Positions 4,630 through 47,160 of a stretch of DNA of 64,000 nucleotides are shown piece after piece. The notes below the pieces were generated by a model that was not told the origin of the DNA, did no database searches, and worked only from the letters and a program-made list of their open reading frames with translations. How positions within the stretch are numbered: the stretch's first letter is position 1; every line of letters begins with the position of its first letter. This stretch comes from a virus: the IMG/VR virus record IMGVR_UViG_3300029984_000008, positions 7,836 to 71,835 of that record. One strand, written 5' to 3'. The position numbers and the translations under genes were made by a program.

Positions 4630-5661
4630 ATGAATGTACTAAATAAAGTTCTAGCAAACCTTACTAGTAAATGGAATACAGAGGCTCAGGATATTAGAGC
4701 TATAACCATAGCTAAAGGCACTGGCAAATACAACCTGGTAACTGTCACCTCTACACAGCTATATTTTCATTCAACTAGCTACCAAGCTAATATGCCAACG
4801 TCACAGTCTATTTACTTAGACGACTACACAATAGGTGAACTAATAACTGCTATTAATAAGCTGGGGTATATAGCAAATTTAGCTTCCGAGGCCACTGCAC
4901 AGTCATATGATTCTATGAAAGCTTGTACCCTGATGGAGGTTACAGGCATACCACTTTCAGGTATACCAACTTTAACAGTTTTCACTTCCACTTTATGGCA
5001 GCTATTATATCCTATTATGCGAGCCGTAGAGGCATGGGGTATTAATATGGACAATAGTATACCCCAAATGTATGCGAACGTCACAGGGGGCACCTGGGTA
5101 GATTACTGGGCTACTTTTTTCAATGTACAGAGAACTAATGGCCAAAGTGATGAGGCTGTGCGTAAAAATATGTTTATGAACCTAGCAGATATTAAAACAA
5201 ATAATATAGCACTTGCAGAGCTTGTATCACTTATCACAAAGAGTAAAGTATCTGTAATAGACGTATCCCCAGGGATATTTGAAATTGAAATAGGGCTTAG
5301 CTATATGAGTTCCGCTGTGGATGTTCACACGATTATTGATAGTGCTAAAGGTGGCGGCATAAAATACTACCTAAACTATACAGGTGTAGCTAGCACGGAG
5401 GACTATAAAGCAGAGTATAAAACTGTACATGGTAGTGACTTTGCAAGTAGCGCCGATGCGGGTGTTTCTGTGGCTATGACATTAGCTGAACCTGAAGCAT
5501 TCCGAATGGTACAGATAAACGCCTCACTTACACTAAATAAAGATAATATAGGTCCAGACGGGGCTACTATGCAGCTAGTACCAGCACCAGTTCGTATGAA
5601 GGATACAGCTACTATGACTTTAACATTAAACGGCACTGTCACAAGAACAGGCACAGTATAG
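4630..5661 (+). CDS. Baseplate wedge protein (gpI-like)
   Basis: G.WVDYWATFFNVQR.NGQSDE..R motif; immediately follows baseplate J. Confidence 0.6.
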   Translation: MNVLNKVLANLTSKWNTEAQDIRAITIAKGTGKYNLVTVTSTQLYFHSTSYQANMPTSQSIYLDDYTIGELITAINKLGYIANLASEATAQSYDSMKACTLMEVTGIPLSGIPTLTVFTSTLWQLLYPIMRAVEAWGINMDNSIPQMYANVTGGTWVDYWATFFNVQRTNGQSDEAVRKNMFMNLADIKTNNIALAELVSLITKSKVSVIDVSPGIFEIEIGLSYMSSAVDVHTIIDSAKGGGIKYYLNYTGVASTEDYKAEYKTVHGSDFASSADAGVSVAMTLAEPEAFRMVQINASLTLNKDNIGPDGATMQLVPAPVRMKDTATMTLTLNGTVTRTGTV

Positions 5662-5677
5662 AAGGAGGTACAACTAA

Positions 5678-6280
5678 ATGAACGATACAAAGTTTATGGA
5701 TTCATATCCAGAGGACTTAGGTGGTCCAAAAGGCTTTATAGGGGGCTACCTGCACAATGGAGAGGCTAAATTTATATCAATAGGCTCGGGGGCAGACCCT
5801 AGGCAGGGATACTTTGAAATTCCACAAGACAGTATAGTTAGGGAAATGCACGCCAAAAACCTTATAGTTAGTGAAGCCTCTGTATTCATGGCTAAACGTA
5901 TGGTACCAGGTACTTCATGGGGTAATGGTATAAATTACCTAGAGGTTGGCACAGGGGTGGGCACTGGTACAACAGCTGTGCCTCAAGCAGAAACACTTGC
6001 TCAGACAGCCCTAAGGGTGCCCTTAGCTAGAAAAGCTATCACAGCCTGGACATATTTAGACACGAACGGTAATGCTACAGCCACTGAGACTAATGTTATA
6101 CAATTTACCACCGTATTTGATGAAGCAGAGGCAGTAGGTAGCATAGTAGAAATGGGGCTCTTCGGTGGTAATGCAACTACTACCCTAAGCTCTGGCTATA
6201 TGTTCAACTATAAAACATTCGGAGTATGGACCAAAGGCTCAACACTGAAACTCACAGTAGCCTGGGTTATAACATTTTAG
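5678..6280 (+). CDS. Baseplate / tail-fibre attachment protein
   Basis: KNLIV, VGTG, EA.GSIVEMGLFGG and YKTF..K..L...W.ITF motifs common to myovirus fibre-attachment proteins. Confidence 0.6.
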   Translation: MNDTKFMDSYPEDLGGPKGFIGGYLHNGEAKFISIGSGADPRQGYFEIPQDSIVREMHAKNLIVSEASVFMAKRMVPGTSWGNGINYLEVGTGVGTGTTAVPQAETLAQTALRVPLARKAITAWTYLDTNGNATATETNVIQFTTVFDEAEAVGSIVEMGLFGGNATTTLSSGYMFNYKTFGVWTKGSTLKLTVAWVITF

Positions 6281-9739: not shown

Positions 9740-10063
9740 ATGAACAAAGAGGAATTAGTAAAATCAATAGCTGACAAAGCTACTAAGGAGACAGGGTTAC
9801 AAATATCTCAAAAGGTGGCCAAGGCTTGCTTAGACGCTGTAATACTTACAGTGGAGGAAAGAACTAAGAAAAGAGAAGATGTAATATTAGTTGGTTTTGG
9901 GACATTCTCTACAGCAGACCGAGCTGCTAGAGTTGGTAGAAACCCAAGAACTAAAGAAGTAATAAATATTCCTGCAAAAGTAGTACCTACATTTGCAGCT
10001 GGTAAAACTTTCAAAAGTTACACAGCTTCTTTAAAAGCTAAAGTTAAAAAAGTAAAGAAATAG
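9740..10063 (+). CDS. hup: HU-family DNA-binding protein with Lys-rich tail
   Basis: MNKEELV..IA, V.LVGFGTF, R.ARVGRNPRT.E.I.IPA..VP.F.AGK..K. Confidence 0.95.
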   Translation: MNKEELVKSIADKATKETGLQISQKVAKACLDAVILTVEERTKKREDVILVGFGTFSTADRAARVGRNPRTKEVINIPAKVVPTFAAGKTFKSYTASLKAKVKKVKK

Positions 10064-12458: not shown

Positions 12459-12770
12459 ATGAATAAATATGAAATAGTATCAGGTTGGTATAATCCAGGA
12501 GGTAGCTGGTGTGAAGGCTCTACCTCCTATGCAACTATACCTGAATTAATTGAAGCTTACAAAAGCAAAAGACACAGAACTGGCATAATGATAAAAAGAA
12601 TATGCTTAACTTGTGAGTATTCAAATAGCTTAGATTGGGATGAAAGAGCAGCTCAGAAGGCTAAAGACTACCTAGAACTATGCAAAGAGTTAGAGGTTAA
12701 TGAAATATATGATAATTTTGTAGTTAGGATGGCTAACCTAGTGAGCCCAATAAAATCTAGCACAATTTAG
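12459..12770 (+). CDS. Hypothetical protein
   Basis: RBS AAGGAGGT; same junction sequence as the preceding gene. Confidence 0.6.
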   Translation: MNKYEIVSGWYNPGGSWCEGSTSYATIPELIEAYKSKRHRTGIMIKRICLTCEYSNSLDWDERAAQKAKDYLELCKELEVNEIYDNFVVRMANLVSPIKSSTI

Positions 12771-12829
12771 TTGTATACAACTAAACAGCAAAATATATAT
12801 ATATAATAAAAAATCAGTTTCAATTAGAA

Positions 12830-13000
12830 TTACTTACGTACTCGTAAGGAAATCTCGATATAACACACTTTTATTTTTTCAAAAATTTTAATTTTTTCAG
12901 AAGAGGTTTTAAAAGTAAAATAAAAAAATTGTCATAGGCACTTGGTGTGATGTATCGACATTTGCTTACGAGTTGGTACGTGAAAACGATTTACATTGCA
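12830..13000. repeat. Palindrome-armed non-coding element, copy A
   Basis: 28-bp inverted arms at 12841-12868 and 12945-12972 (24/28 match) around a 76-bp A/T-tract spacer; homologous in inverted orientation to 60548-60725. Confidence 0.85.
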
Positions 13001-13117
13001 TCTTTTTCAAAAAAAAAAAGAGACGGTCATTTAGCACCTGCCTCTTCCCCCAAAGCATAAAATACTCAATATTGAGCATACTATAAATAGACTAAAATAA
13101 GAAAGGTGGAATAAACT

Positions 13118-13444
13118 ATGAATAAAGAATTATTAGTAAGTAAGTTAAAGGCTATTAAACTTAAAACAGTAAAAGCTAAAATGATAATAGAAGCTATAGA
13201 GACTGGCACCTCTGAGAGAGGTAATCACTCAATGTGGTGCACTGGCAATGAAATAACTATGTGGTACAGAGGCACACCAATAATAACTGTTTACCTATCA
13301 ATAAGCGAACTTGGTGTAACCTACTTAATAACTAACTTATATGCTGGCGAATATGATAGAACACCAGCAACTATAAGACAGCGTAAAGACTTTGAGACCT
13401 CAGTGAATGAAATTGTATCGGATGCAATGCTATGGACATTATAG
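13118..13444 (+). CDS. Hypothetical protein
   Basis: ORF with RBS AAAGGTGG. Confidence 0.6.
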   Translation: MNKELLVSKLKAIKLKTVKAKMIIEAIETGTSERGNHSMWCTGNEITMWYRGTPIITVYLSISELGVTYLITNLYAGEYDRTPATIRQRKDFETSVNEIVSDAMLWTL

Positions 13445-40072: not shown

Positions 40073-40119
40073 TACGTAATATGTTTAAATTGCGTAGTAA
40101 ATTTAAGGAGGAATTAAAA

Positions 40120-40653
40120 ATGAAAAAAGTAAATGGGACTTATGTAATTAGTGCTTTTCCTGCATGTGGAAAAAGTTATTGCTTTAATAATCATCAAGAT
40201 GAGTTTTCTATGTTGGATAGTGATAGTAGCGAGTTTAGTTGGATTAAAGGTGCTGATGGAAAAAATACTACAGAAAGAAATCCCAATTTCCCACAAAATT
40301 ATATCGAGTATATAAAGGCTAATATAGGCAAGGTAGATATAATATTTGTATCAAGCCATGATGTAGTTAGAAAGGCTCTAAAAGACAATAATATAAAAGT
40401 AATTATAGTATATCCTATTAAAGATTTGAAAGAAGAATGGATAAGAAGATTCAAAGAAAGAGGTAATAACGAAGGCTTTATTAACTTTATATCAAGCAAT
40501 TGGGATAATTTTATTGATGATATAGAGAATGAAGATTATGGTTTTCTAAAAGAAGGATTGAGTCGTGCAGATATATACTTAGATTTGAATTTCTTATACG
40601 GTTGTTTTGACAATTCAATGGGAAATTTAACTTGTCTTTGGAAAAATGAGTAA
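40120..40653 (+). CDS. P-loop kinase/NTPase
   Basis: VISAFPACGKS Walker A; DSDSS.F; RBS AAGGAGG before ATG 40120. Confidence 0.7.
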   Translation: MKKVNGTYVISAFPACGKSYCFNNHQDEFSMLDSDSSEFSWIKGADGKNTTERNPNFPQNYIEYIKANIGKVDIIFVSSHDVVRKALKDNNIKVIIVYPIKDLKEEWIRRFKERGNNEGFINFISSNWDNFIDDIENEDYGFLKEGLSRADIYLDLNFLYGCFDNSMGNLTCLWKNE

Positions 40654-40675
40654 TTCGCAATACTAAAATATGACG

Positions 40676-40724
40676 AAGAAAAGCCCGTAGCCTCTACACT
40701 ATAGTAGAGACACGGGCTTTTCTT
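40676..40724. terminator. Bidirectional terminator between convergent units
   Basis: aagaaaagcccgt...acgggcttttctt. Confidence 0.7.
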
Positions 40725-41616
40725 CTTTTCCATACCATATGCTACCCAGTGGATTTATCTCTACTTCATCTTTTGAAGCAAAGAGCCACTGAAGGTCTGT
40801 ATTATCTATTCCGTATATACAGTCTCTTAGTACCAGGGCCCTAGCTTTTGTAGGGGCAACGGTTAGCACTAAAGGAAAACTTCCATAGGTAGCCTCAAAG
40901 GTTCCTGAGCCATAGAAAGCTGCATATCTTTTATGCTTACGCTGGAATACTTGCGGTGTCATAGTCCCATTGTCCCACTCTAAAAAGAAGTGAAAGCCTT
41001 CATCTTCAGAGAACCAATACTGGCCGTAGGCATCTGGATTGCATATCATACGCTCGCCCCAGAACTTAAAACTATGCCTACAGTGGTTCTCTGTTCTGAA
41101 GCCAGTTACCTCATGACCTAGCTCTCTAGCTTTTCTAAGCAAGTAGAGATAGAAGTTATTAGTATCTACCATGTGCTCTAGGTACGGAAGTCTAGCCTCA
41201 TTCATTTCATAGGACCAGGAAATATCTTCTATCTTTTGGCCTAGCATACCAGCGACTACCTTAGCACCTAATTCATCTAGGACCACGTGCCCCTGTGAGC
41301 TGCCTTCATTTCCTACGTCAACAAAGAACCTGTCTACTATACGGTTATCAAATAATTTTCTAATCCTACGTCTTGCTATGAGTTCTGCTTGTGTATTTTC
41401 TTTGCCTCTGAAGCTATACTTATAGTGCATTTCAGCTATTTGCCTAGTGGTGAGGCAGCGCTGATAGTAGAGAGACAGCAGCATTTCTTTATCTCTAGGG
41501 GTTAGACTAGCTTTTTGAAGAGCTTCAGGGGTACTACGACTCACCTCTGTATACTTACGACTAAACTTAGATATTCTGCGACTAGTTATACACCTAGCCT
41601 TTTCTTTATCGTCCAC
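40699..41616 (-). CDS. Replication-relaxation (Replic_Relax) family nuclease
   Basis: LTPRD..ML..LY..R.LTT.QIA, RRR.RKL, LEH..TN.FY, PDAYG and FFLEWD.GT (wHTH plus PD-(D/E)XK). Confidence 0.85.
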   Translation of the reverse strand: MDDKEKARCITSRRISKFSRKYTEVSRSTPEALQKASLTPRDKEMLLSLYYQRCLTTRQIAEMHYKYSFRGKENTQAELIARRRIRKLFDNRIVDRFFVDVGNEGSSQGHVVLDELGAKVVAGMLGQKIEDISWSYEMNEARLPYLEHMVDTNNFYLYLLRKARELGHEVTGFRTENHCRHSFKFWGERMICNPDAYGQYWFSEDEGFHFFLEWDNGTMTPQVFQRKHKRYAAFYGSGTFEATYGSFPLVLTVAPTKARALVLRDCIYGIDNTDLQWLFASKDEVEINPLGSIWYGKEEKPVSLL

Positions 41617-41629
41617 TTTTTTAACCTCC

Positions 41630-44158
41630 TTATTTTTTCTTTTTAATGCGTCCTGTGGCCTTACCTATTTTCACAGGAGCACTGTCATCCTCTGTAATCT
41701 GGTTCTTTTGAGTTAAGCTATATCTTTCTTGTATATCATCTTTAATCTGGTCTAGCCTCATATAGTTCTTTTTCTTATACTGCTCTTTCCACGCTTGCAC
41801 TTCCTTAAGTCTAGTAGCCTCTGCAACTACTCTGCCTTTATCATCTACATATGGAAAATAGACATTCATATCTAAATTGTCAAATGTGAAGGGATTAGGG
41901 TGAATCTTTTTAAACCTACCATAGCCAGTATACTGAATCATAGAGGTCAGGTCGTCCTCTGTTACGCCAGGGAACATTCTTTTAATCTTAGTGGCTGAAG
42001 AGGTACCAATGAGTAGACTAATTTGAGTAAAGGTATTATCCTCTATCATACCCATAAGCTGTGCTGGAATCTGCTCTACGCTCTGATGAGCCATGATTAA
42101 GCCTAGGCCGTAACTTCTAGCCAGCTCAAGGAACTTTTGTATATCCTCTGACTGATTAATGAATAGTTCAAACTCATCCATGAATAGTATATGAGGTACA
42201 CGGTCCTTAACTGGTATATCACCTCTAGAGAATATTCCATTAGATACAAGGGCTGTGAAAAGTGTACCAAAAAAGGACACTATTTCTGTGGTATTTTTAT
42301 CCATAGCATAATTAACTATAATTATAGCTTTTTCATCTAATAATTTACGCCAGTCGAATAAATTAGCCCTTTGACACATACTATAGCGAGGTAGCTCATT
42401 TTGTGTAATAATTTCAAGTTTATTTAATATAGCCTTAGCTTCATTTTGTCGAGCCTTTGGTGTCATATGAGCATAGCTCAGCCAGTAACTGAGGACGTCA
42501 GGAAAGTCTGTGTGGTCCTGCATCTTTTCAATAGTGTGTATTAGGTAGTCTTCATCTGTGAACATACGATATACTTCGAGGATAGAACCCTCTTCATTAG
42601 TAGATATAACAGCTATAAGAGCTCTCCTTAGTATACTTTGGCTGTGCTCTTTTATAGAGCCTTCAGAGTTTAATTTTAGGAATACACTTACTATCATAGT
42701 TGCTAGGTTATAAGTGCTCATGCCTGGCTGTCTTAGAAAATTGATAGGCATAAACATTGTTAGGTCCTGCATATCTATATACTGTATGCGGTTCCACTCA
42801 GACTTAGGTAAGTGGGCCATAAGGTCATCTGCTACGTCTCCCTTTACATCAAAGAATGTCATGCCGCAAAATCTAGTAATCTGAAGAGCTATAAATGATA
42901 ACCAGTAGCTCTTACCTGAGCCTGTACCTCCTATACAGTAGACATGCTGCATTAGCATCTTAAGGTCCTTAAAAGCTAGGTATTTTTGTCTACCTCTGAA
43001 GTTAGACATTCCGAATACTATAGCTTTATCTGCCCATGCCTCTTCAATAGTGTTATATTGATATACACCGTCTGGTACTGCCATTTTCTTAGCTCGGAGT
43101 CTTATTACACCTGGAATGTTTTTGGAGGGAAAGTGGAGCACTGTGGCGAGTTCTGGAGGGGTCACATAGTTTTCTGTAGGGTAGACTGCAATGCTTCTAT
43201 CTGAATATTCTTTCAGAAATTTACTCACTTGAGTTATATTAAATATCTTAAGCCAGGGCCTCTTCACTGTCTGCTTATAGACTTCACGGTAGTTTGTATA
43301 AGCTCTAAATCTATTTTTATCGGTGGCTGGTGCAAAGGCGCTTATTACAGTATTTAATCTAGCCCTACCTTTTTTAAAGTCTGGGTTATAACAAACTGCC
43401 CTAATATTGAGGTCAAAATATACACCAGCTTCCAGCTTTTTCTGAATACTGGAGAGACTGGTGTTATGGTCTTTAGCTCCTGAATTACCCACTACTGCAT
43501 ACTTTAATGCGCCTACCAGAGCTTTTGGTGATTCTAATAAGCCCGTCCACTTAGTGTAAGGCTGGTGTAATTTAGAAGGTCTGGAGCTTGTCTTTTTATA
43601 TATTTCATAATAGCTACTGGCTATAGTAAGTGCTCTGAAGTTGATAGGGCGTAGTGTAAACTGCACCCATACCTCTTCATTATCATCTAAATTTTGCATA
43701 CTAGCACAGAGGCTAGCCACCATGTCAGCACCTACACGCTCACCGTCACTCTGTAGTAGATTAAATATATAATGACTATCAAGGTCCAGGGTAGCACAGG
43801 CACTTTTTACAGCGGTTATACTACCAGGTTTGGCGTAGTCTTTATTTGCATCTATTGCTACTATCTCTGCAGCTGGGTGGATTGAGTTTATATTAGACTG
43901 TAAAAATTCCTGTGTAACATTATCTGATAGCCATGCGTAGAGGCTTATACCTTTAGCTGTCCCTTGAAACTCAAAGGTTAGCCAGGTATAAGGATTTTTA
44001 GAATTATATATAGTGTAGAGGCTATCGAATAGGTTGTTATACTGTGAAGGTTTAAACTCTGCATCTTTCTCTATATAAATCTGGTAGAGGTGGCCACCTT
44101 CAGAGGCCTTTCTTAATTTATTTCTACAGTAAGGGTACATTAATGATTTAATTATCAT
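41630..44158 (-). CDS. VirD4/TraG-like coupling ATPase (HerA/FtsK superfamily)
   Basis: H..CIGGTGSGKS (Walker A), FFDVKGD, PINFL, ILFMDEF (Walker B), ARSYGL.L.MAHQS.EQI; ~350-aa N-terminal extension. Confidence 0.85.
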   Translation of the reverse strand: MIIKSLMYPYCRNKLRKASEGGHLYQIYIEKDAEFKPSQYNNLFDSLYTIYNSKNPYTWLTFEFQGTAKGISLYAWLSDNVTQEFLQSNINSIHPAAEIVAIDANKDYAKPGSITAVKSACATLDLDSHYIFNLLQSDGERVGADMVASLCASMQNLDDNEEVWVQFTLRPINFRALTIASSYYEIYKKTSSRPSKLHQPYTKWTGLLESPKALVGALKYAVVGNSGAKDHNTSLSSIQKKLEAGVYFDLNIRAVCYNPDFKKGRARLNTVISAFAPATDKNRFRAYTNYREVYKQTVKRPWLKIFNITQVSKFLKEYSDRSIAVYPTENYVTPPELATVLHFPSKNIPGVIRLRAKKMAVPDGVYQYNTIEEAWADKAIVFGMSNFRGRQKYLAFKDLKMLMQHVYCIGGTGSGKSYWLSFIALQITRFCGMTFFDVKGDVADDLMAHLPKSEWNRIQYIDMQDLTMFMPINFLRQPGMSTYNLATMIVSVFLKLNSEGSIKEHSQSILRRALIAVISTNEEGSILEVYRMFTDEDYLIHTIEKMQDHTDFPDVLSYWLSYAHMTPKARQNEAKAILNKLEIITQNELPRYSMCQRANLFDWRKLLDEKAIIIVNYAMDKNTTEIVSFFGTLFTALVSNGIFSRGDIPVKDRVPHILFMDEFELFINQSEDIQKFLELARSYGLGLIMAHQSVEQIPAQLMGMIEDNTFTQISLLIGTSSATKIKRMFPGVTEDDLTSMIQYTGYGRFKKIHPNPFTFDNLDMNVYFPYVDDKGRVVAEATRLKEVQAWKEQYKKKNYMRLDQIKDDIQERYSLTQKNQITEDDSAPVKIGKATGRIKKKK

Positions 44159-44174
44159 AATAGTCTGTGCCTCC

Positions 44175-44366
44175 TTATATTAGCGCTTTTACAGCTTCCC
44201 AAATATGGGTAACTAGGTCTGTAGCTAATTTTCCGCTACCAATGTAGTCCCGTAGTAAGAATAGTATTTTTGTTACGAAGATAACTGTTACACCTGTATA
44301 TGTGGTTACTAGAGTCCATTTAATTATAAAACCTTCAACTTCTGTGTGCTTTTGAGCATCATACAT
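44175..44366 (-). CDS. Small membrane protein
   Basis: One long hydrophobic segment; RBS AGGAGGTG; same operon as the ATPase. Confidence 0.7.
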   Translation of the reverse strand: MYDAQKHTEVEGFIIKWTLVTTYTGVTVIFVTKILFLLRDYIGSGKLATDLVTHIWEAVKALI

Positions 44367-44377
44367 GCCAACACCTC

Positions 44378-44944
44378 CTACATATTAAGCATAGTGCTTA
44401 TTGACTGATAGATAGTAGTGAATAGACCTATTACTTCCTTGAGTATAATTGCACCGCCTACAAAGGATACTAGAGGTATAAAATCACCACGGCCTGTAAA
44501 CTTTAAGAAGCTGCATACTACTAGAGTAATAAATCCTATAATTAGCATATGAAGCAGTATAGCCCCTTGACCTGAGAAGAAGTTACCTCCACCTTCAGCG
44601 TATACTTCAATTGCGTCGCCACCGTATTTATTGTAGGCTACAATTTTTTGTAGAAATTCTCCTGGATGTAGTTTAAATAAACCAAAACTAAATGCAGGTA
44701 CCCCTATCATAATAGCAGCTGTGATTTTTTTATTATTCATGAACCAGCGGATAAAATGTCTGCTATTTACTATAGCTGAAATATCCTCTGTAGAGGCTGT
44801 AGGAAATACTGTTTTACATGTTACTATGTCATCTACAACGCCCCTTCGACCTAGTTTAAATACCTCTGACATAGTAGTACCAGGCATTAGCTCCTTTATA
44901 GTATTTAGTTCACTAAATTTTACTGAATAGCTGTTGTTTAACAT
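44378..44944 (-). CDS. Membrane protein with C-terminal SpoIIIAC/AD-like domain
   Basis: C-terminal 60 aa IIGFITLVVCSFLKFTGRGDFIPLVSFVGGAIILKEVIGLFTTIYQSISTMLNM follows the SpoIIIAC pattern G(I/F)..V..LK..GR....G...L..VI....Q...TM; similarity judged by eye. Confidence 0.6.
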   Translation of the reverse strand: MLNNSYSVKFSELNTIKELMPGTTMSEVFKLGRRGVVDDIVTCKTVFPTASTEDISAIVNSRHFIRWFMNNKKITAAIMIGVPAFSFGLFKLHPGEFLQKIVAYNKYGGDAIEVYAEGGGNFFSGQGAILLHMLIIGFITLVVCSFLKFTGRGDFIPLVSFVGGAIILKEVIGLFTTIYQSISTMLNM

Positions 44945-45004
44945 CTAAATCCTCTCCTATATGTTTTTGTTGTATCAGGGTATATTACCCTGTATTCCTA
45001 CTAA

Positions 45005-45032
45005 TAAATTATGCTGTTTTACAAAATGTGTG
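45005..45032 (-). promoter_or_regulatory. Sigma-K/sigma-E-type (mother-cell) promoter
   Basis: Minus strand cAC-16-CATAattTA, upstream of the 44944 operon and downstream of a terminator. Confidence 0.5.
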
Positions 45033-45078
45033 AATATTTTTACTGTACTTGAAGGTGTATTGGCTATGAATAATACAT

Positions 45079-45125
45079 AAAAAGAACACAGCAAGCGCCT
45101 AAATAGCTGCATTTGCTGTGTTCTT
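45079..45125 (-). terminator. Intrinsic terminator after the hydrolase gene
   Basis: aagaacacagcaa...ttgctgtgttctt with a T-run on the minus strand. Confidence 0.75.
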
Positions 45126-45161
45126 AATCAATGTGACTTATTTCTATTTTTTATTTTTCTT

Positions 45162-45584
45162 TTACCATATTTTAATAAGAAATTTGTGTCTCTTCATTGC
45201 GGAACTTAGTTTGTCACCAAATAAATGTGATAAGCCGCCTATAACTACCATATAATACATATCTGTTCCTTTTATTGTATCTGTAGTTAATAGTAAGAAA
45301 GGTATTGATATTATTAGTAGGCCAACTATACTATGACAATGTCCTCTGTGTTTCATAAATGGTGTAAATGGATTATATCGCCCTAGTGTACTATTTCTCT
45401 GGTCAATATCTGGTAATAAGCTGCCTATAAGTACTGCCATGAATAATACTGGACTATGCGCTATAAAGTAAGCTACTATGGAACCTATGACCAAATGTCC
45501 TGTATAATTGAAGATAACACACCTTCCTTCTATCTCTCTTATTTCTCTACTATTAGTATGTGCATTTCTAGCTTTTATATGCAC
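45162..45584 (-). CDS. Membrane-bound metal-dependent hydrolase (YdjM-like); true start probably near 45515
   Basis: GH, GSLLPDID, HRG..HS and SHL.GD motifs with TM segments. Confidence 0.8.
   Translation of the reverse strand: MHIKARNAHTNSREIREIEGRCVIFNYTGHLVIGSIVAYFIAHSPVLFMAVLIGSLLPDIDQRNSTLGRYNPFTPFMKHRGHCHSIVGLLIISIPFLLLTTDTIKGTDMYYMVVIGGLSHLFGDKLSSAMKRHKFLIKIW
45554..45582 (-). promoter_or_regulatory. Sigma-G promoter
   Basis: Minus strand GCATA-17-CATACTA, an exact consensus match. Confidence 0.7.
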
Positions 45585-45600
45585 GGTAAATAATGGAATT

Positions 45601-46038
45601 TTAAAAATTATTGCCTAATAGCCTACTCTTCACTGAGCTTCTTAGCTGCTCTTTATCCTTATTCTTAGCTAGGGGGCTTGGCTTAACTGTAGGCTCTGGG
45701 AAGTTCTGCCAAAAAAAGTCCTCTCTCTTATGTTCTTCTTTTACCTCTTCAGGTGTATTAACTACTTTCTCCTCTTCCTGTATGTTGTTAGCTACTACTA
45801 GTTTATCTATTTGACGCTGTGGTAGCACCTCTGTGGCTACTTGAGTCTCTGTTGCTGCTCTGTCTATTTGATGCTGTGTTAAAGCACCTGGGTACTTTTG
45901 TTGCTCTATAGCAAGCACCCTACGATATACCTCTTTAAGCCTGCTTGTCCTATCTTTGTATTTGTCTAGGTCCTTTATTATATCAGCATCTGTATTTGGA
46001 TTAAGTCGAAAACCAACTGGTTTACTAATCATAGCCAT
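45601..46038 (-). CDS. ParR-like ribbon-helix-helix adaptor
   Basis: N-terminal VGFRLN..DADII..L..RT..LK (RHH-like); disordered middle; directly downstream of parM. Confidence 0.65.
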   Translation of the reverse strand: MAMISKPVGFRLNPNTDADIIKDLDKYKDRTSRLKEVYRRVLAIEQQKYPGALTQHQIDRAATETQVATEVLPQRQIDKLVVANNIQEEEKVVNTPEEVKEEHKREDFFWQNFPEPTVKPSPLAKNKDKEQLRSSVKSRLLGNNF

Positions 46039-46039
46039 C

Positions 46040-47080
46040 TTATATCAATCCTTCCTTAATCTTTAGCATTCCATATTTCCTATAGCCACTGGCGTTAGAG
46101 TACTCAGGCTCGTCTAACTTTATAACGGGGATGCCTGTAAGCTCTACTAGATAGTCATAGTAGAGGTTTGCGCCACCTCCACATATTAGTATAGCTGAGA
46201 ACCTTCTGAAGTCTGGAACCCATACACTAAGCTCCTGAGCAAGCTCTGGGAATACCTGGTCTATTGCTTGCTTGCATAAGTCAGCAACGTCTGTGCTAAC
46301 ACCTCCGAGTTTAACTAGTCCTGTTCTTAGGACCTCATCAACTTTATAAGGGGGTATAGCGTACTTATGCTTCTTAAGCACAAGCTTCCTAAGCTCATTT
46401 TGTACTTTATGAACGCCGTGCTGTATAGTGAAGCTATCCTGGCTGAAGCTTGCAGCCTCCATGATACAACCATCTGTAGTCTTTCCACCGAGGTCAAGCA
46501 CTAGCACATCCTCTGAGGCTAATTCTATGTGGTCCATGTTCTCAGTGCCATCTTCATTTAATACAAAGTCAAAGAACGCCCCAGCGGACTGTGGGAGAGT
46601 AAGAGACCTTTTAACTTGCACAAACTTCTCACTATCACCAAAACCAAACTTGAAGTCACCTTTAAGCCTCTCCGTAAAGTTATCCCTTATCTCATCTACC
46701 ATAAACTCTTCTACGGGTAAGCCGCTAACTATTAAGTCTATAACACTCTTTCCAGTCTCCTCATTGTAGAGGCCTAGCATTGCAAGCATCTTCGGTGTAT
46801 CGCTCTGAGATACTAGACGCTCTGCGTTAAAGTCATATGAACCCTTAGCACCTACATTCCATACACCTACCTGGTCTGTTATGATATAGCCCTCTGAGTC
46901 TGCTAAACCTGAAACTACGACCTCCGAACGTCTCTTTACTATGCTAGCAAATTTACAGCTCCAGTGAGCTGCTACTGCCTTACCTTGGGTATAGCCTAGG
47001 TCAATTGCTAATACTTCTGGGTCCACTGTAATTGCTGGTTTTAGATTTGTTTTCTTGATTGCTGTATTTGTCATTTTCAC
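46040..47080 (-). CDS. parM: ParM/StbA actin-like partition ATPase
   Basis: AIDLGY..K, VSGLP, PQSAGA, VLDLGGKTTD, ICGGGA and N..GY.KYG. Confidence 0.9.
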   Translation of the reverse strand: MKMTNTAIKKTNLKPAITVDPEVLAIDLGYTQGKAVAAHWSCKFASIVKRRSEVVVSGLADSEGYIITDQVGVWNVGAKGSYDFNAERLVSQSDTPKMLAMLGLYNEETGKSVIDLIVSGLPVEEFMVDEIRDNFTERLKGDFKFGFGDSEKFVQVKRSLTLPQSAGAFFDFVLNEDGTENMDHIELASEDVLVLDLGGKTTDGCIMEAASFSQDSFTIQHGVHKVQNELRKLVLKKHKYAIPPYKVDEVLRTGLVKLGGVSTDVADLCKQAIDQVFPELAQELSVWVPDFRRFSAILICGGGANLYYDYLVELTGIPVIKLDEPEYSNASGYRKYGMLKIKEGLI

Positions 47081-47131: not shown

Positions 47132-47160
47132 ATATTCGACACCATTACAGAAGTTCCTGC
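47132..47160 (-). promoter_or_regulatory. Sigma-H promoter of parM-parR
   Basis: Minus strand GCAGGAACT-11-GTCGAATAT versus consensus RnAGGAwWW-11/12-RnnGAATww. Confidence 0.75.

Follow-up and report, generated by a model that had tools for sequence, protein, structure and literature searches.

A phage DNA translocation cassette with a remote SpoIIIAC-like subunit and a sigma-K-type promoter-like motif

The phages 0305phi8-36 (orf200-orf207) and SPO1 (gp27.3, gp27.4 and gp27.9) carry a 'DNA translocation operon', as set out in the passages on this operon in Pathria et al. 2012 (PMC3357382). According to the same passages, the 0305phi8-36 operon encodes a relaxase related to CloDF13 MobC (orf200), a VirD4-like ATPase without a membrane helix (orf201), membrane proteins and an MreB-like protein (orf207), and deleting the cassette leaves the lytic growth unchanged. 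The word 'spore' occurs 0 times in the paper. Here, we describe a related four-gene cassette on the minus strand of an uncultured phage genome, in a stretch of 64,000 nucleotides (hereafter the window) that is bases 7836-71835 of the single 71,835-bp virus record IMGVR_UViG_3300029984_000008 with a CheckV completeness of 74%. The cassette of this phage and its clade has a membrane protein with a SpoIIIAC-like hairpin and a sigma-K-type motif upstream.

Comparable gene arrangements are described in plasmids and other phages. The portion of PMC4993578 on the conjugative pWBG4 family likens its detA-detB arrangement to CloDF13 mobBC, and in both of them a coupling-type ATPase gene is followed by a MOBC relaxase gene, as in the window. 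The Tyrovirus gp11-gp18 (Thrax) block has been noted by its authors as plasmid-like, and its acquisition from a plasmid has been proposed (PMC9703825). It shares with the window a ParM, an RHH-type adaptor, a small membrane protein, a type IV secretion-type ATPase and a replication-relaxation protein, but it has an M23 peptidase gene and an HNH gene in place of the YdjM and SpoIIIAC-like genes.

SPO1 forms virospores, and the sections of PMC12991052 that deal with them suggest that the ParM gene 27.9, with which the SPO1 cassette begins, may be a factor. The genes 27.3, 27.4 and 27.9 go unmentioned in the NAR 2026 SPO1 paper. In the literature, we found no paper that links the DNA translocation cassette to forespore entry.

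The window cassette consists of the genes for a 188-aa membrane protein (44378-44944), a 63-aa membrane protein (44175-44366), an 842-aa ATPase (41630-44158) and a 305-aa Replic_Relax protein (40699-41616), all listed as minus-strand open reading frames (ORFs) and separated by gaps of 11, 16 and 13 nt. By a hydropathy scan, the 188-aa protein has three hydrophobic segments, the 63-aa protein has one, and the ATPase and the Replic_Relax protein have none. Nearly all window genes are on the plus strand, and the cassette belongs to an oppositely oriented island at 40.7-47.1 kb, where it comes after genes for a ParM-like actin, a 145-aa adaptor and a YdjM-family membrane hydrolase in this order. 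A preliminary description of this DNA had reported four tightly packed minus-strand genes, and re-listing the ORFs returns the same coordinates, spacing and gene content.

The gene order is the same as in 0305phi8-36 orf207-orf200, in the SPO1 relative SP8 and in Thrax3. The likeness to the DNA translocation operon takes in an actin-like protein, an adaptor, one or more membrane proteins, a tiny membrane protein, an anchor-less ATPase of ~800 aa and a MobC-like protein. As in the Pathria operon, the cassette is a self-contained island in a phage without other type IV secretion system (T4SS) genes. However, the identities are only 19-26%, and the slot that holds the pilin-like orf204 and the polytopic orf203 in 0305phi8-36 is taken by the SpoIIIAC-like hairpin in the window. 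The insertion of the YdjM-family gene and the sigma-K-type motif before the operon are also particular to the window.

Judged by these sequence comparisons, the cassette very probably belongs to the family of phage DNA translocation operons and is a reduced relative of the conjugation machinery. The preliminary description had put the locus forward as a new system, which does not hold, as the kind is already in print for 0305phi8-36 and SPO1 in Pathria et al. 2012 (PMC3357382) and for the Tyroviruses (PMC9703825). Such a cassette is known since 2012, and what is new here is a clade with a SpoIIIAC-like subunit and a sigma-K-type motif.

The cassette block is syntenic in 8/8 distinct loci (the window, L003, L005, L006, L007, L072, L073 and L076), and the Replic_Relax gene is present in all seven loci reaching that far. 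Seven loci extend upstream, four of them with ParM and six with YdjM; no ParM match is found in L006 and L076, and L076 is cut within the YdjM gene. The YdjM-family gene sits between the partition genes and the cassette in 6/7 loci reaching upstream. Megablast of the operon against the phage and plasmid collections finds no close DNA relative.

The only carrier among cultured genomes is L007, a 32-kb contig of Ammoniphilus resinae (Paenibacillaceae), whose genome has a spoIIIA operon. Its cassette comes without the ParM and YdjM genes. By eye, a ParA-type-like ORF (5133-6077, minus strand) follows the cassette in this contig, and a tyrosine recombinase-like ORF (12571-13371, plus strand) precedes it.

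The 188-aa protein is built of a soluble N-terminal part, a membrane helix at residues 74-92 and a two-helix hairpin at residues 129-178 with an LKFTGRGD loop. The Pfam model SpoIIIAC (PF06686) matches its residues 130-185 over all 56 model positions, with 23.9 bits against a cut-off of 24 in the whole-protein search and with 26.3 bits on the same domain in the six-frame search. The whole model is also matched by 22/24 homologues of the protein at E<=0.01. These 24 relatives come from 5.8 billion clusters, and an exhaustive profile search of 1.84 billion representatives returns 22; the final 60 residues are nearly invariant among the relatives. By tblastn, the protein has no relative in 50,697 phage records, where one Vibrio match at the N-terminus (E 0.08) is by chance, or in 72,556 plasmid records.

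Because PF06686 matches near the cut-off can be false, as the one to a ZIP transporter at 21.8 bits, the hairpin was tested also by hhalign with profiles built from sampled Bacilli genomes, with 25 sequences for SpoIIIAC and 22 for SpoIIIAD. The phage hairpin matches SpoIIIAC with a probability of 93.9 (P 1.6e-7, 55 columns) and a score of 38.9, compared with 10.1 for the reversed profile and a mean of 12.0 (sd 2.5, maximum 21) for 200 shuffles within the helix and loop segments. The match of SpoIIIAC to SpoIIIAD, both accepted members of one Pfam family, is weaker (probability 49.6, P 1.7e-4). The phage hairpin has no match to SpoIIIAD or, at a probability of 1.0, to T4SS_pilin. Moreover, the phage profile retrieves P0151, a distant member of its family that acts as a bridge, scoring 31.5 bits, above the Pfam SpoIIIAC cut-off.

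The likeness extends over ~56 residues and includes a helix-1 Gly, an LK..G[KR].[DE] loop, a helix-2 Gly and an LF..I tail. The host SpoIIIAC, a membrane subunit of the mother cell, is a stand-alone protein of 66-72 aa adjoining SpoIIIAD, whereas the phage protein has 188 aa, its hairpin is 20% identical and fused behind ~128 extra residues including another membrane helix, and its gene sits in a phage cassette and not in a spoIIIA operon. We read the 188-aa protein as a remote SpoIIIAC homologue fused behind an extra domain and not as an orthologue. Hence the SpoIIIAC-like C-terminus of the preliminary description is genuine as a likeness, with none of the 200 shuffles coming near and with P0151 as a bridge, but it goes no further, as the equivalog model and the reciprocal HMM searches fail. 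The same description had made its case depend on a SpoIIIAC/AD profile match, and by hhalign there is one with SpoIIIAC and none with SpoIIIAD.

The PF06686 search of the genomes gave three outliers, namely one divergent true spoIIIA operon, the false ZIP transporter and one 82-aa chromosomal ORF, and none of them adjoins a relative of the cassette. The 82-aa ORF (L041 ~9766-9927, minus strand; PF06686 28.4 bits) is a second, stand-alone one in a Bacilli genome with a normal spoIIIA operon, and it adjoins an arginyl-tRNA synthetase gene.

In other lineages, a pilin-like protein lies directly upstream of the ATPase. PK2.1 gp43, vB_BpsM-61 gp6 and 031MP003 gp52 match T4SS_pilin with hhalign probabilities of 96.6-97.5 (P 5e-12 to 6e-10), and 0305phi8-36 orf204 is T4SS-pilin-like with a probability of 65 and a Pfam E of 1e-3. 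The small proteins of SP8 and Thrax3 and orf202/orf203 of 0305phi8-36 resemble neither SpoIIIAC nor the phage hairpin nor pilin. The pairs PK2.1 gp43-gp44, vB_BpsM-61 gp6-gp7 and 031MP003 gp52-gp53 resemble the window in that a hairpin protein of 130-141 aa directly precedes a related ATPase. They differ in that the siphovirus hairpin is of the VirB2-type T4SS_pilin and has no adjacent Replic_Relax, whereas the clade hairpin shows no T4SS_pilin likeness.

Since the pilin-like protein fills the slot in other lineages, the cassette appears to work with different hairpin subunits, and the SpoIIIAC-like one is a speciality of the clade. The order of a hairpin protein, a tiny membrane protein and an ATPase recalls, in our own comparison, virB2-virB3-virB4.

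The Geobacillus and Bacillus siphoviruses (L077 3070-5654, L078 1761-4352 and L079 3093-5648) have the VirB2-type pilin-like protein and the ATPase with no Replic_Relax, and in 2/3 of them a Spo0E-like gene lies 1-1.5 kb downstream of the pair. In Bacillus phage G (gp153-gp156, L080 354-5918), the ATPase gp156 comes after the polytopic gp153, which has at least six hydrophobic segments, and also after a 549-aa protein annotated as VirB-like.

The 63-aa protein is a single-pass membrane protein with no family match in Pfam. A counterpart of 61-80 aa is at the same place in all eight distinct loci and has the motif E..I.K.T....F....F..K. The complex prediction for the ATPase and the 63-aa protein scores 0.00, which is evidence neither way.

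The ATPase matches PF02534 (T4SS-DNA_transf) with 28.1 bits against a cut-off of 20.1. It is composed of an N-terminal domain of ~350 aa and a C-terminal P-loop domain, and its Walker A (GGTGSGKS) and Walker B (DEF) motifs are invariant. The AlphaFold2 model made from 27 sequences has a mean pLDDT of 84.9, and its residues 354-764 match VirB4 4ag6 with Z 27.5 and rmsd 3.0 over 336 residues. The model matches TrwB with Z 26.8 and rmsd 3.9 over 371 residues, DndH-C with Z 26.7 and HerA with Z 23.7.

The top eight Foldseek matches of the model are all full-length TrwK/VirB4. The full-length alignment to TrwK/VIA covers 564-572 residues over both domains, but with rmsd 14. The N-terminal 352 residues modelled alone from eight sequences give a poor model (pLDDT 53.7), which finds TrwK only at E 0.014-0.03 and has no structural match at E<=0.001. 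Among the VirB4 sequence models, TIGR00929 gives 21.6 bits against a cut-off of 643, and PF03135 has no match in the genome. Searched by sequence among the solved structures, the ATPase has no match and the Replic_Relax alignment gives nothing but noise, and the best feature scores in the ESM Atlas are 0.80-0.81, which are leads only. PF26449 is precomputed on most of the ATPase relatives and may describe the N-terminal domain.

By the criteria for type IV coupling proteins, an N-terminal membrane anchor is not found in the 842 aa. As modelled, the ATPase would be a ring ATPase of the VirB4/VirD4 type that shares with VirB4 an apparent two-domain layout and the lack of an anchor, with the caveat on the name that the modelled fold is equally close to VirB4 and VirD4. 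The plasmid relatives of the ATPase occupy the genetic position of the coupling protein. The earlier name of a VirD4/TraG-like ATPase has the PF02534 and TrwB matches for it and the tied VirB4 match and the missing anchor against it.

The Replic_Relax protein matches PF13814 with 88.1 bits against a cut-off of 25.3, and phrog_9381 'replication initiation by nicking' matches as well. In CONJscan, PF13814 stands for the MobC relaxases (PMC5357655), and Replic_Relax has been assigned to the PD-(D/E)XK nucleases (PMC3424549), from which the fold assignment is taken here. The protein has a helix-turn-helix part and a PD-(D/E)XK-type nuclease part. Its residues P194, D195, E213 and K227 are invariant in 10/10 distant relatives and 30/30 closer ones, and the PF13814 score together with these conserved residues bears out the Replic_Relax nuclease gene that had been called earlier.

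The spacing rule for sigma-K promoters is 16-17 nt. Upstream of the cassette, a sigma-K-type promoter-like element is located at 45005-45033 on the minus strand and consists of TCACA (45033-45029), 14 nt and GCATAATTTA (45014-45005). It agrees with the B. subtilis sigma-K consensus KCACM / GCATANNNTA, given in the tabulated part of PMC3416734, at all the positions that the consensus specifies. The pattern AC-N16-17-CATANNNTA is at a like position in 4/7 related regions (the window, L003, L006 and L007), which are otherwise not alignable upstream. The chance per region is 0.7-4.3%, and 0/5000 simulations reach at least three regions.

Upstream of the cassettes from other lineages and plasmids, the motif is found in 0/9, and the only two matches in their 93.8 kb are both inside genes. 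For the sigma-K/E-type promoter of the preliminary description, the recurrence of the motif and its spacing gives comparative support, a single match being at the chance level. Between the promoter-like element and the ribosome-binding site, a palindrome CAGGGTA-ATA-TACCCTG (44976-44992, minus strand) may be an operator. In 6/7 related loci (the window, where the palindrome flanks it, L003, L005, L006, L007 and L073), the start codon of the 188-aa gene is preceded at 25-35 nt by a box (G/A)ATACA(C/G/A)(C/G), which could be bound by a regulator or be the actual -10 element.

A search with the SP8 ATPase returns 146 phage records, 145 of which are from endospore-former hosts. They are 133 of Bacillus, five of Geobacillus, two of the phage D6E, whose host we take to be Geobacillus, two of Lysinibacillus and one each of Alicyclobacillus, Brevibacillus, Clostridium and Microcystis. 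The host genera behind the 145 records form endospores. The window Replic_Relax protein finds 30 phages and all of them are Bacillus phages (30/30), and the ATPase of a staphylococcal plasmid finds no phage in the collection, which presumably holds many staphylococcal, streptococcal, listerial and enterococcal phages. The ATPase/relaxase cassette is indeed seen in spore-former phages, as had been stated before.

As to the mechanism, the Replic_Relax protein would bind the phage DNA by its helix-turn-helix and nick or cut it via the PD-(D/E)XK centre, as its family suggests. The ATPase would assemble a ring motor of the VirB4/VirD4/HerA kind, a proposal that takes the fold from the model and its activity from that of the kind. 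Because the ATPase is without a membrane helix of its own, the 63-aa and 188-aa membrane proteins would hold it at the membrane. We infer this recruitment from the gene order, the translational coupling in the relatives and the conservation. The motor may then move DNA at or across the membrane as a membrane-tethered DNA pump, and we consider the chances for and against this to be even.

In this clade, the cassette would be turned on in the sporulating mother cell from the sigma-K/E-type promoter, and together with ParM it would let the phage genome reach the spore. Our leading reading is tentative as a whole: the clade's cassette loads or keeps the extrachromosomal phage genome in the spore, with a probability of roughly 30%.

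Several observations weigh against the spore reading. Homologous pairs serve ordinary conjugation, also in Staphylococcus, which does not sporulate. Sigma-K becomes active once engulfment is over, at a stage where the crossing into the forespore should be hardest, and the spore entrapment of phi29 reportedly needs no dedicated channel. Transcription from a sigma-K promoter would start after that of the sigma-E spoIIIA operon, and the spoIIIA genes are given as sigma-E genes in the relevant part of PMC3416734. The counts behind the host bias span the records regardless of the phage relatedness and the collection make-up.

The hairpin and the motif have their own weak points. The SpoIIIAC likeness is remote at 20% identity, and the equivalog model TIGR02848 fails on the 188-aa protein with 16 bits against a cut-off of 56.65. 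True SpoIIIAC/AD proteins score 28-77 bits with PF06686, compared with 21.8 bits of the false match to the ZIP transporter. In the reverse direction, the phage profile recovers SpoIIIAC/AD in 0/49 spoIIIA-bearing genomes, and its 22 matches among the 1.84 billion representatives include no ordinary SpoIIIAC.

The pattern AC-N16-17-CATANNNTA has 12 matches on both strands of the window, against 9.95 +/- 3.4 in 100 Markov shuffles, and 3/7 related loci are without the motif. The promoter call carries the consensus of B. subtilis and the spacing rule over to the host of this phage. Furthermore, the sister lineages have a VirB2-type pilin-like subunit, so the cassette as such needs no SpoIIIA-SpoIIQ (A-Q) complex, and other lineages are without the SpoIIIAC-like and sigma-K features, so its general function cannot depend on either.

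One rival is helper-dependent mobilisation between cells, in which the ATPase is a coupling protein, the Replic_Relax protein is a MOBC relaxase, and the phage DNA is nicked at oriT and passed to the channel of a co-resident plasmid or integrative and conjugative element (ICE). Plasmid relatives make it attractive. By tblastn, the ATPase finds 125 plasmid records, and in S. aureus pSA159 and B. subtilis NRS6116_2 a DUF87 ATPase gene and a replication-relaxation gene, detectably related to the window pair, are directly upstream of TcpC/TcpD/TcpE-type conjugation genes and a second ATPase gene. This location and the same arrangement in detA-detB and mobBC, as described in the part of PMC4993578 noted above, suggest that the phage pair descends from a Firmicute unit of a coupling protein and a relaxase. 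In mobilisable elements, MobC pairs with VirD4-type coupling proteins (PMC5357655).

The plasmid pairs head or need a full conjugation cluster, but there is none in the phage or its three complete relatives. We searched four phage records, namely this genome, 74% complete by CheckV, and three relatives rated 100% complete (99-105 kb), and AAA_10, CagE_TrbE_VirB, TcpE, TrbL and T4SS_pilin each match 0/4, which extends the previously noted absence of VirB4, VirB6 and pilin pore genes beyond the window. A phage without pore genes would suit a dependence on a helper, the ParM genes suggest a plasmid prophage, and in A. resinae a VirB4-like gene lies on a contig other than that of the cassette.

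Nevertheless, we regard the mobilisation as unlikely. The cassette is kept in strictly lytic phages (the SPO1 group and 0305phi8-36), where it would make little sense. The ATPase is without the membrane anchor of VirD4/MobB and has its own membrane proteins alongside, and a sigma-K-type motif does not fit vegetative mating. No oriT is identified, and the inverted repeats found are terminator-like. PLSDB types 121/125 of the relative-bearing plasmids as non-mobilizable, which may reflect a gap of the typing tool.

Intracellular housekeeping of the plasmid state is another rival, where Replic_Relax is an initiator or resolvase and the ATPase is a translocase or helicase, working with ParM and without any membrane passage. 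The name 'replication initiation by nicking' in PHROGs and the Pfam name, which covers replication and relaxation, agree with it, and PMC9703825 states that Replic_Relax is essential for plasmid replication. The cassette is also steadily linked to partition genes (ParM, and the ParA-like ORF seen by eye in A. resinae), and FtsK/HerA-type motors, to which the fold matches, work on DNA inside cells. However, polymerase and primase-helicase genes are present in the phage itself, lytic phages need no plasmid maintenance and the 0305phi8-36 deletion has no growth effect. The conserved membrane partners, which are pilin-like in the sister lineages, point to a membrane machine, and we hold the housekeeping to be improbable too, much as the mobilisation.

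In a narrower form of the spore reading, the SpoIIIA-SpoIIQ channel itself is used, by a conjugation-like system confined to a single sporangium. There, the SpoIIIAC-like subunit would join or copy the channel, the ATPase would dock on it, and the DNA, led by the relaxase, would be pumped out of the mother cell into the forespore to yield a virospore. We find this form very doubtful.

Least probable of all is exclusion or defence by a membrane-tethered HerA-like ATPase and a PD-(D/E)XK nuclease cutting incoming rival DNA: the ATPase does match PADLOC mad8 (E 3e-13) and weakly the HerA models, its fold neighbours include HerA-nuclease defence complexes (Z ~20) and the cassette is dispensable for lytic growth in 0305phi8-36, but its partner nuclease is a true member of the MOBC family that has a DNA-binding head and no PADLOC match and is not among the known defence effectors, the nearest sequence relatives are conjugation proteins and the linkage to the partition genes is left unexplained.

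How phage genomes enter spores is a long-standing question, and the trapping of lytic Bacillus phages in spores is a decades-old observation. We know of no dedicated phage machinery for spore entry. The spore entrapment has recently been measured for SPO1 as virospores, in the sections of PMC12991052 on them. The cassette occurs widely among phages that infect endospore formers, is not needed for lytic growth and has had no explanation since its description in 2012. The SpoIIIAC-like subunit and the sigma-K-type motif point to the mother cell and provide a concrete handle on how phages enter spores. If the spore idea fails, the cassette would be conjugation parts kept by phages for another purpose.

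In the rest of the island, the ParM-like actin gene (46040-47080, minus strand) matches ALP_N and MreB-like_C, and phrog_691 at E 3e-48. It is followed on the same strand by the gene of the 145-aa adaptor (45601-46038), a conserved upstream neighbour searched in Pfam, PHROGs and NCBIfam. The YdjM-family membrane hydrolase gene (45162-45584, minus strand) scores 62.1 bits and has a weak match to Zn-dependent phospholipase C (E 0.0015). Its true start is probably downstream of the listed GTG, as the relatives begin ~22 codons after it.

The cassette is flanked by perfect inverted repeats at both ends, in agreement with the terminators reported before. The upstream terminator hairpin (45082-45094/45113-45125, minus strand) has 13-nt perfect arms with a T run after them. 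The downstream hairpin (40675-40688/40712-40725) has 14-nt perfect arms, lies between convergent genes and overlaps, at 40675-40725, the final codons of the Replic_Relax gene. Both hairpins are absent from the consensus terminator scan because their loops of 18 and 23 nt exceed its 8-nt limit. The convergent neighbour (40081-40653, plus strand) encodes 190 aa of PHROG 4182 (unknown function, E 1e-52) with weak matches to restriction endonuclease N-terminal domains.

Sheath-, tube- and tape-measure-like ORFs, recognized by eye within the first 8 kb, suggest that the uncultured phage is a myovirus. The phage also has genes for a family A polymerase, an SNF2 helicase and a ribonucleotide reductase, and a primase-helicase gene related to those of Bacillus phages. 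From their sequences, these genes would place the phage near phages of Bacillus-like hosts.

A Spo0A-box heptamer TGTCGAA at 47135-47141 (minus strand) falls in the promoter region that directly precedes the ParM-like gene and is on the strand of this gene. The window has four Spo0A boxes against 1.7 expected, which is not significant, as 10/100 shuffles reach four. The listed sequencing runs that hold 40699-45160 number 24 and are all peat metagenome DNA, with five marked as a possible source.

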